64,000 bases of DNA from a virus: the IMG/VR virus record IMGVR_UViG_3300037804_000222, positions 1 to 64,000 of that record. One strand, written 5' to 3'. Each line of letters begins with the position of its first letter. The first letter of the stretch is position 1. A program made the position numbers and the translations under genes. Below the pieces are notes generated by a model, which did no database searches, was not told the origin of the DNA, and was given only the letters and a program-made list of their open reading frames with translations. Below, in pieces: positions 37,471-47,147 of the stretch.

Positions 37471-37794
37471 CTATAGCTCTCTTAAGCTAGTCACTAAATT
37501 ACTTAATGATTCTATACTAGTTATTTTAGTGTTATCTTCCAGATACACATAAAAGTCTGGCTCATCTATAGATGTTGATAGAAAATGAATTCCAGCTATA
37601 TCTAAAGAATAATATATATATCCTGCAGCAATATAATTTTTACCTATCTCAGGTTTTTGATATACTTCTTCAAATCCTAAAGTTAATAATGCTAGTGGTG
37701 TTACATCTGATTTTTCAAAATCTTTAATAGATTTTTCTAATCGTTCTTTGTTTGCTGTAGAGGATGTAAGATACTCTGTTTCATCTTGTTCCAT
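37471..37794 (-). CDS. Protein with N-terminal YefM-antitoxin-like peptide
   Basis: DETEYLTSSTANKERLEKSI resembles the E. coli YefM C-terminus [20 protein letters not shown]; fused to a TPLALLTLGFEE phage domain. Confidence 0.6.
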   Translation of the reverse strand: MEQDETEYLTSSTANKERLEKSIKDFEKSDVTPLALLTLGFEEVYQKPEIGKNYIAAGYIYYSLDIAGIHFLSTSIDEPDFYVYLEDNTKITSIESLSNLVTSLREL

Positions 37795-37797
37795 AAA

Positions 37798-38046
37798 TTA
37801 AGGTTTTAGTTTGGTTAAATCTAATACAGGCTCTTGTGTTCCATAAATTAAGTTTTTTTGCTCTTCAAGATAATTATTTACAAAAGCAATGATCGCTTTT
37901 TCAATATCTTTAGTTATTCTTTTTTTCATAGCCTTTTTCTTTTTACGGGGAAGTTTGTAATACCTCCTTGTATAAGGCAATAACTCTTTTAGAGTTTCAT
38001 GGCTAAAGTTTATTCTTTTCTTCCCCATAAAATAATTGTTTTTCAC
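37798..38046 (-). CDS. Hypothetical basic protein
   Basis: KLPRKKKK motif; start uncertain. Confidence 0.5.
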   Translation of the reverse strand: MKNNYFMGKKRINFSHETLKELLPYTRRYYKLPRKKKKAMKKRITKDIEKAIIAFVNNYLEEQKNLIYGTQEPVLDLTKLKP

Positions 38047-38099: not shown

Positions 38100-38760
38100 T
38101 TATGGCAGGTTATAACCTGATAAAATGTTCGTGAACGTACGGCTATAGCCTGATGAGATTGTTCAGTGGACTGAACAATTGTCCAGTTTTTTGATTAATA
38201 AACTGGACATTTGTCGCTTTTTTTGCGACAGTTGGCTGTAGGAGAAGGATTCGAACCTCCACGTAGTAGTTAGCTAAAGGACAGATTTTAACCAGGGCGC
38301 TGCGCAGCTTGGTGGTCAATCCCATTATCCTTAGTTTATCCTATAATCTACACCCCCGAGACAGGAGGGTATGTCTGCCAATTTCATCACCCTACATTAA
38401 ATTTGTACGTATTCCGTACATATATAGGTTTTCCTTTTTGTTAACGTCAACAAAATGGTTTACTCCGTCAGTTGCTCCGTCAACAAAAGGGTTTACTTAT
38501 AGTTACAAATGTAAACAACTTAGTATAACTTTTAACTATACTTAAAACTTATTGCTCTATTCCCCAAATAAACGGTTTTTCTGCGATTGTAATCACCAAA
38601 TAACCGAAAATGAAGCTCAAGCTAACCTTAATTGTGTCTCATATTTGATACAAAATGAGCTTTATTGGTGCAAATATGCACCACATCTGCACCACATTAG
38701 GTTTGTTTTGTTACAGTTTGACAATCATTTTACCCTTGTTTTGATACACAAACAAGTTTG
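38100..38760. repeat. Array of diverse short inverted repeats, part 1 (interrupted by a tRNA-like gene)
   Basis: CAGGTTATAACCTG 38106, GGCTATAGCC 38141, ATTGTTCAGT-GG-ACTGAACAAT 38158, TGTCCAGTTT..AAACTGGACA 38180, TGTCGC-T7-GCGACA 38212, TGTACG..CGTACA 38404, TTTTGTT..AACAAAA 38436, AGTATA..TATACT 38522, GGTGCA..TGCACC 38667, CTTGTTT..AAACAAG 38735. Confidence 0.85.
38233..38396 (-). tRNA. Atypical tRNA-like RNA: GUC anticodon, class II-type D-arm, about 90-nt variable arm, encoded CCA
   Basis: Acceptor TGTAGGG/TCCTACA-G-CCA; D-arm ATG-AAATTGGCAGA-CAT; anticodon arm CCCTC-CTGTCTC-GGGGG; T-arm GGAGG-TTCGAAT-CCTTC. Confidence 0.8.
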
Positions 38761-39332: not shown

Positions 39333-39827
39333 CTACATACTAGTTTCTATCCAAAGTCCTAAAGCGGTTCCTAATAAAAAGACAAGAAAGAAAACAAATA
39401 CAATAAAAATAACTCTAGATTCGTTTATTCCCTCATTTGTTCCCTCATTTAATCCCTCACTTATTCCCTCATTTGGTTTTTTATACGCTTCTTTTGGAGT
39501 TAAAGGTTTTTTAAAAATATCCTCATTTGTTCCCTTACGTAGTATCCCAGCTGTTTCACATAGCTTCAGGAACTTATTATACTCGCCATCTTTATTGATA
39601 GTGTTAGGTGTTTGGGAATCGCCTGTATCTATTTCGCCAAATACTGATGTATTTATAACGACAACCTCCCCCATATTACGTTGGTAATGTTCTTCTAAGT
39701 CTACAAAGGATTCTCCACATTTGCAATAATCCATTGACCATCTTTTAGCGCTATCGGATTGCTGAATACTATCACAGTACCCACATCTCCATTCCAGTAG
39801 TGTTCTCATGTTTTCTTTTTTAAGCAA
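39333..39827 (-). CDS. Zn-ribbon protein with EG[ILT][NS] repeats and C-terminal transmembrane helix
   Basis: CGYC...CKCG; NEGISEGLNEGTNEGINE; hydrophobic C-terminus. Confidence 0.6.
   Translation of the reverse strand: MLKKENMRTLLEWRCGYCDSIQQSDSAKRWSMDYCKCGESFVDLEEHYQRNMGEVVVINTSVFGEIDTGDSQTPNTINKDGEYNKFLKLCETAGILRKGTNEDIFKKPLTPKEAYKKPNEGISEGLNEGTNEGINESRVIFIVFVFFLVFLLGTALGLWIETSM
39424..39471. repeat. Four 12-bp tandem repeats (consensus TTTATTCCCTCA)
   Basis: TTTATTCCCTCA TTTGTTCCCTCA TTTAATCCCTCA CTTATTCCCTCA; a partial copy lies near 39520. Confidence 0.85.
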
Positions 39828-40251: not shown

Positions 40252-40392
40252 TTGTCAAAGAGGCAGGAGTCGAACCTGCATGAAGGACATCACAGCCTTT
40301 ATGTGGACTTTTACCACTTCCGAATTACCAAGACTCAGTTAATTACTCCGCTTCTTTAGAAATTCTGCGTTTACCGTTTCGCCACTCCTTGA
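40252..40392 (-). ncRNA. tRNA-like RNA with extended anticodon arm and branched variable region
   Basis: Acceptor (T)CAAGGAG/CTCTTTG(A); D-arm GCG-AAACGGTAAA-CGC; GAATT..34 nt..AATTC; T-arm GCAGG-TTCGACT-CCTGC; 3' end A-CAA. Confidence 0.75.
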
Positions 40393-46827: not shown

Positions 46828-47049
46828 CTATGCCCATATGATTCCGCCATCTGCGATGGTGCTAATCTCAGGCACTTCAGTGCCTTTAGCAAATTCGTCG
46901 CTACAGTCGCCTTCTAGGCGGATGAAGCAAGTATTTGCATTGGTAGAGACCACTCGGTCTTTACCAAGAATTTTGCGAGTTTCGAACCCGCTTAAACCTA
47001 CGACAGTTTGACCGTCTTTAACTTGAACCCAAAAACATTTAGTTTTCAT
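46828..47049 (-). CDS. Hypothetical protein, probably among the first early genes
   Basis: 73 aa followed by a strong terminator. Confidence 0.6.
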   Translation of the reverse strand: MKTKCFWVQVKDGQTVVGLSGFETRKILGKDRVVSTNANTCFIRLEGDCSDEFAKGTEVPEISTIADGGIIWA

Positions 47050-47147
47050 AATGTAGCAAAATTTAGTTAGGGGGCATTAGTGCCCAAAACTTAGAGGGGG
47101 TGGGGTTATATAAGTGGTCTACTCTCTCATTTCCGTAAACAAAATTT

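Follow-up and report, generated by a model that had tools for sequence, protein, structure and literature searches.

A phage protein with a YefM-type tail as a candidate orphan antitoxin against host YoeB

Results

The N-terminal segment of P0001, a small protein encoded by a virus with crAss-like affinities, is very probably related in sequence to the toxin-neutralising tail of YefM antitoxins. Since the phage carries this tail with neither a toxin gene nor the remainder of the antitoxin, P0001 most likely serves the phage to disarm a toxin of the host, and the explanation that we prefer, giving it somewhat better than an even chance, is that it acts as a tail-only orphan antitoxin that would bind the YoeB of the host as a counter-defence. 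The gene lies in the window that was analysed, a stretch of 64,000 nucleotides (positions 1 to 64,000 of IMG/VR record IMGVR_UViG_3300037804_000222); the whole virus record comprises 90,771 bp, is rated 97% complete and holds the P0001 gene in a single copy. The features discussed are the following.

37471..37794, minus strand: whole P0001 gene, 107 aa plus stop; a YefM-type tail, then a phage-only domain
37681..37788, minus strand: tail stretch, aa 3-38; hhalign match to Bacteroidia YefM positions 49-84 (C-terminal end)
37708..37785, minus strand: putative core toxin-binding motif, aa 4-29; defined by HMM match, contact residues and family conservation
37474..37704, minus strand: phage-specific alpha/beta domain, aa 31-107; present in every family member, tailed or tail-less
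37798..38046, minus strand: 82-aa ORF, upstream and 3 bp from the P0001 gene; next to the homologs in related phages

The 28 N-terminal residues quoted in the initial annotation were exact, and 37711-37794 codes for aa 1-28 of P0001. The open frame starts one codon before the ATG, and a stop codon is found two codons upstream of the ATG, thus no N-terminal domain is hidden in the P0001 frame. The core motif comprises E5, T6, Y8, L9, S11, S12, N15, R18, L19, S22, I23 and F26, and in YefM, aa 4-29 have their counterpart in helix alpha4 and the end of helix alpha3. AlphaFold models the tail as a helix with moderate confidence (pLDDT 64-78) and predicts the domain after it well (pLDDT about 90), an arrangement that would fit a flexible binding segment. 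The model contains no clear counterpart of YefM strand beta4, because residues 31-38 of P0001 are already part of the folded domain there; structurally, this is the chief caveat.

As a single sequence, P0001 gave no match in Pfam, NCBIfam, PADLOC or the Protein Data Bank sequences, and a PHROGs scan returned two weak matches, to the C-terminal ends of families of 87 and 115 aa. The E. coli YefM segment cited in the initial annotation proved correct when translated from the K-12 genome (NC_000913.3). The motif was not picked up when P0001 was compared to E. coli YefM by BLASTP, and P0001 scored only about 10 bits with a narrow enterobacterial YefM HMM. The profile match that had been proposed as a check is therefore not obtained with P0001 alone, whereas the family and YefM profiles give significant matches in the same register. 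A Bacteroidia YefM HMM was built from 15 antitoxins of YoeB loci, in each of which yefM lies directly upstream of YoeB, and was run unfiltered against all 1094 six-frame phage ORFs of at least 30 aa. P0001 was the sole significant match (E 5.7e-5, 19.2 bits), with HMM positions 51-77 falling on aa 6-32, and the next-best phage ORF had an E of 0.36. Conversely, when a phage-family profile of 23 tail-bearing homologs was compared to 177,635 Protein Data Bank sequences, the top match was E. coli YefM (2a6q; E 0.002), and YefM/RelJ-type antitoxins of E. coli, M. tuberculosis and S. aureus made up eight of the ten matches, all in one register.

Alignment of the phage family with the Bacteroidia YefM profile by hhalign gave a probability of 97.0% (E 1.2e-10, score 58.2 over 36 columns), and the probability for E. 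coli-type YefM was 94.5%. The scores of 200 column-shuffled controls averaged 11.0 (sd 2.2, maximum 17.9) and the reversed alignment scored 8.0. PF02604 was the Pfam family matched by most members of the phage family (5/23), always weakly. Identity to single Bacteroidia YefM tails reached 12/27 for P0001 and 15/27 for other family members. A chance resemblance of an amphipathic helix to YefM might be suspected from the shortness of the stretch, from the blank curated libraries for the single sequence and from the silent BLASTP comparison to E. coli YefM; however, independent significant profile matches agree on one register and the shuffled controls never came close, and this extremely improbable reading is close to refuted by the profile statistics. 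As a separate observation, the tails of YoeB-linked YefM in Bacteroidia fall into two types, starting with E-T-x-H/Y-L-L (loci L148-L153 and L156) and with A-T-x-H-E-L (L142, L144, L145, L154 and L155), respectively, and the phage tails combine features of both.

In S. aureus, the C-terminal region of YefM is disordered until YoeB is bound, whereupon it wraps around the toxin and blocks its catalytic face (PMC7544224). Glu50 of YefM forms a salt bridge with YoeB Arg69, hydrophobic contacts are made by Thr51, Tyr53, Leu54, Leu64, Ile68 and Leu71, and several Asn, Ser and His residues take part in hydrogen bonds, while strand beta4, which follows helix alpha4, pairs with strand beta1 of YoeB and blocks YoeB dimerisation (PMC7544224). 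Through the alignment of the phage-family profile with the YefM-type antitoxins of the Protein Data Bank, Glu50, Thr51, Tyr53, Leu54, Leu64, Ile68 and Leu71 map to E5, T6, Y8, L9, L19, I23 and F26 of P0001, respectively, and S12, N15, R18 and S22 also correspond to YoeB-contacting residues. T6, Y8 and N15 are invariant in all 24 distinct phage tails, E5 and L9 are kept in 21 of them, and a hydrophobic residue is present at L19 in 24/24, at F26 in 22/24 and at I23 in 19/24. By this alignment, the best-conserved residues of the phage family are those at the YoeB interface of the S. aureus complex. The pattern E-T-x-Y-L ... S ... N ... L ... I of the YoeB-pairing YefM subgroup is likewise present in P0001.

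This conservation bears on two further readings. The tail could be derived from YefM and be used otherwise, either as a recognition or decoy segment for the proteases Lon/ClpXP or as a grip for some partner that is not YoeB. It is in their tails that antitoxins are sensitive to proteases, the part of the YefM tail that corresponds to beta4 is missing, and in about half of the homologs the shared domain manages with no tail at all, all of which would agree with another use. On the other hand, the positions that do not vary in the phage family are those in contact with YoeB, among them the Glu paired with YoeB Arg69, and a degron would not require the exact contact pattern; we therefore regard another use as unlikely. 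Were P0001 the decaying, no longer functional relic of a captured yefM gene, the lack of both a toxin partner and a DNA-binding domain would be accounted for. This is very unlikely: 24 distinct sequences retain the tail even where overall identity falls to about 40-50%, its contact residues are invariant, various N-terminal modules are attached to it, and its place in related phages is conserved.

Searched exhaustively with HMMER, 1.8 billion representative proteins yielded 52 homologs of P0001, whereas a word-indexed protein search found just two near-identical relatives. No close relative of the P0001 region was present in the phage collection searched, and no P0001 relative in the genome contigs searched. 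The domain of aa 31-107 is common to all homologs and the tail is found in about half (26/54 sequences), with a gap of variable length between the two. The modules ahead of the tail also differ, being a crAss001_48 domain or an Lcl_C/DUF1566 domain, among others. On a tree of the shared domain (50 sequences, 24 with the tail), presence of the tail requires about seven changes by parsimony, and well-supported branches force at least three gains or losses. Near-identical shared domains occur with and without the tail, as in P0015 and P0024, and together with the several gains and losses this indicates that the tail is a mobile module. Whether homologs lack the peptide had been raised as a check; about half of them do, and the peptide is hence a graft. 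Moreover, half of the family does without the tail, and the shared domain must therefore serve some function by itself.

The shared domain belongs to no Pfam family, and Foldseek against the Protein Data Bank gave no match with an E below 0.7. In the VIA-align wide search the best Z was 5.0, to unrelated proteins, and RelE/YoeB chains (BECR fold) were not among the fold-search matches, which still leaves room for a distant relation. The nearest clusters in the ESM Atlas are unnamed viral proteins, and 401 sampled Bacteroidia genomes yielded two weak partial matches. Two 130-aa Bacteroidia proteins with an N-terminal Cys-rich segment (L157:1426-1818, minus strand, and L158:1426-1818, plus strand) contain one stretch that weakly resembles the front half of the shared phage domain (E about 4e-4) and have no YefM tail.

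Searches for the remaining parts of a YefM-YoeB module covered the whole 90,771-bp virus record. The N-domain of PF02604 had no match in any of the six frames, and the N-terminal beta1-alpha1-alpha2-beta2-beta3 DNA-binding/dimerisation domain of the Phd/YefM family was absent by HMM in the same six frames. Neither YoeB (PF06769) nor ParE/RelE (PF05016) was matched in the record, and the YoeB HMM run against the phage genome returned nothing significant (best E 1.2). The claim that no YefM DNA-binding domain and no toxin gene are present thus holds across the 90.8-kb phage. Nineteen related viral loci, taken with flanks of up to 4 kb, contained no YoeB ORF, and the Bacteroidia YefM HMM matched with its positions 47-77 only, in 13 of the 19. 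P0001 is accordingly phage-encoded and antitoxin-like and has no cognate toxin in the phage, as is characteristic of an orphan antitoxin.

The same results speak to the possibility that P0001 is part of a single-gene or split toxin-antitoxin system of the phage itself, in which the tail restrains a toxic C-terminal domain or an undetected phage toxin. Fused antitoxin-toxin genes exist, and YefM-YoeB fusion genes are on record (PMC11980606), and no function has been assigned to the C-terminal domain of P0001. However, in the fold searches this domain matches neither the RelE/YoeB RNases nor another fold (best Z 5.0), the YoeB HMM is blank in the genome at the best E given above, and many homologs have the domain but no tail, which would not be tolerable for a toxin; a toxin-antitoxin system of the phage's own is quite unlikely. 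Taken together, the conservation pattern and the modular spread of the tail argue against an own toxin-antitoxin, a relic and chance.

Genes for a DnaB-like helicase, a DEAD-type helicase and DNA polymerase I share a minus-strand block with the P0001 gene. The 82-aa ORF at 37798-38046 has a 61-65% identical neighbour in related loci L005, L007 and L009, and related phages keep the P0001 homolog beside homologs of this ORF and of a 164-aa ORF at 39333-39827. We also considered the 82-aa ORF as a toxin or as a YefM N-domain, and this was ruled out by the lack of a match in the phage-wide profile searches. The 164-aa ORF (minus strand) contains a 24-residue Cys-rich segment (aa 32-55) that is 79% identical to the N-terminus of the homolog P0023, where the Cys-rich segment is fused directly to a P0001-type C-terminal domain. 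Modules are exchanged between adjacent genes in this group of phages.

The initial annotation had placed a "decoy array" about 300 bp from the P0001 gene and taken it as support for an anti-defence island. The distance to the non-coding region is correct, and the gap is filled by the 82-aa ORF. Between 38000 and 38800 ARAGORN called nothing and Rfam matched nothing at E up to 1, and with these two blank and a conserved ORF in between, the array adds no support. The proposal of an orphan antitoxin mimic consequently retains the tail match, the absence of N-domain and toxin, and the graft, and loses the array. Spurious ORFs over 38143-38545 share 54-79% identity with stretches of the related viral loci L003, L005 and L009, indicating that the non-coding DNA is conserved there; the region looks like conserved non-coding or RNA-gene DNA common to related phages, and its conservation would fit RNA genes as well as anything. 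Elsewhere in the window, Rfam matched a 137-nt tRNA over the full model at 40255-40391 (minus strand, 33.4 bits), which was not called by ARAGORN and, given its length, must contain a long insert, and ARAGORN called a 96-nt tRNA-SeC(tca) at 46968-47063 (minus strand) that was not in Rfam at the gathering score.

Discussion

The DNA polymerase of the phage is nearest to those of crAss-like phages (28% identity), and relatives carry a crAss001_48 domain. The tail of P0001 scored 19 bits against Bacteroidia YefM compared to about 10 bits against enterobacterial YefM, and this better score is compatible with an origin in Bacteroidota without proving it. From the kinship of the polymerase with crAss-like phages and from the tail scores we infer a flavobacterial host, and Bacteroidia are likely the host class of the phage. 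Of 301 sampled Bacteroidia genomes, 81 encode YoeB (PF06769), 79 of them above the threshold of Pfam; YoeB was absent from all five flavobacterial genomes examined.

We propose that aa 4-29 of P0001 may be descended from, or be a close copy of, the disordered C-terminal region of YefM-family antitoxins, a region that in the YefM type folds onto the ribosome-dependent RNase YoeB/Txe and would cover its active site here as well. The DNA-binding/dimerisation domain of YefM, its labile half, would have been replaced by the phage alpha/beta domain, which is placed after the tail and could serve as a stable scaffold or an oligomerisation module. Encoded within the replication/early gene block, P0001 would, once made, bind the free YoeB-type toxin of a Bacteroidota host, toxin that is presumably freed when the supply of labile host YefM ceases, and trapping of YoeB would prevent the mRNA cleavage that might otherwise abort the infection. 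Binding of YoeB, its neutralisation and a role in counter-defence are thus what we infer for P0001; a literature search of limited extent found no published evidence of YoeB-YefM protecting against phages. A broader and more tentative idea, possible but in our view on the doubtful side, is that marine crAss-like phages possess a family of modular 'toxin traps', in which a scaffold carries interchangeable front modules, including the bare YefM peptide.

The defence role of common type II RNase toxin-antitoxins such as YoeB-YefM against phages is still argued, and a phage family that keeps just the YoeB-contacting peptide, with the contacts conserved, is indirect evidence that phages meet YoeB. 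If the 'toxin trap' reading were true, Bacteroidota would possess a genuine anti-phage defence in their YoeB-YefM modules, and phages would defeat type II toxin-antitoxins by stealing a neutralising peptide of roughly 25 residues; since such peptides are so short, this class of genes would escape routine annotation and could be sought by systematic mining. More generally, antitoxin tails appear to be graftable as 25-residue modules onto unrelated phage proteins, grafts that domain-based annotation misses, and profiles of antitoxin tails could reveal further anti-defence genes. The P0001 peptide might also be of use in the laboratory as a compact inhibitor of YoeB.

Among the phage proteins that act on host toxins, Dmd of T4 acts against RnlA/LsoA. 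Phage orphan antitoxins are established, with NADAR/DarG-like enzymes countering DarTG (PMC11825919). Like these enzymes and Dmd, P0001 has no cognate toxin and is predicted to neutralise a host toxin. However, the former are whole enzymes or unrelated proteins and P0001 is a short type II peptide on a phage scaffold, with an activity that is predicted from its sequence. Compared to YefM of YefM-YoeB/Axe-Txe (PF02604; 2A6Q, 6L8E), aa 3-38 of P0001 align with the toxin-neutralising C-terminal region, the YoeB-contacting residues are conserved, and the tail, a low-confidence helix, is probably flexible in a similar way. In contrast to YefM, where the tail is C-terminal, that of P0001 is N-terminal, and the N-terminal beta-alpha DNA-binding/dimerisation domain, an equivalent of beta4 and an adjacent toxin are all lacking, while the tail is fused to an unrelated phage domain in a lytic-type crAss-like phage.

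Full-length YefM is also known from phages: ORF54 of cyanophage S-CREM1 has been proposed to counter host YoeB (PMC9964418), and we found a full-length YefM-type gene in Pseudomonas phage vB_PaeS-D14H as well. YefM matches at E <= 0.01 were obtained in 5 of 50,697 phage records; four of the five cover at least 80% of YefM, and one of the five records has a Txe/YoeB gene alongside. S-CREM1 and vB_PaeS-D14H keep a complete antitoxin, whereas P0001 keeps the tail only, and our limited literature search found no paper on the graft of only a type II toxin-binding peptide onto a phage protein. A comparable arrangement was found in Voja6_00070 (WYW02181.1; L002:886-1653) of Pseudomonas phage vB_PpuM-Voja-6, a hypothetical protein of 255 aa in which a YefM-type tail lies close to the C-terminus (E 2e-6 by BLASTP against E. 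coli YefM; PF02604 positions 42-73, E 5.4e-4). Like P0001, it is a phage protein with a YefM-type tail and without the N-domain; unlike P0001, it is an unrelated protein in which the tail is near the C-terminus and the C-terminal domain of P0001 is absent, and from these sequences its tail is probably an independent graft. YefM-tailed proteins of the Voja6_00070 type also occur in KoPa-5 and Amme-1; these are 200-kb phages of Pseudomonas putida.
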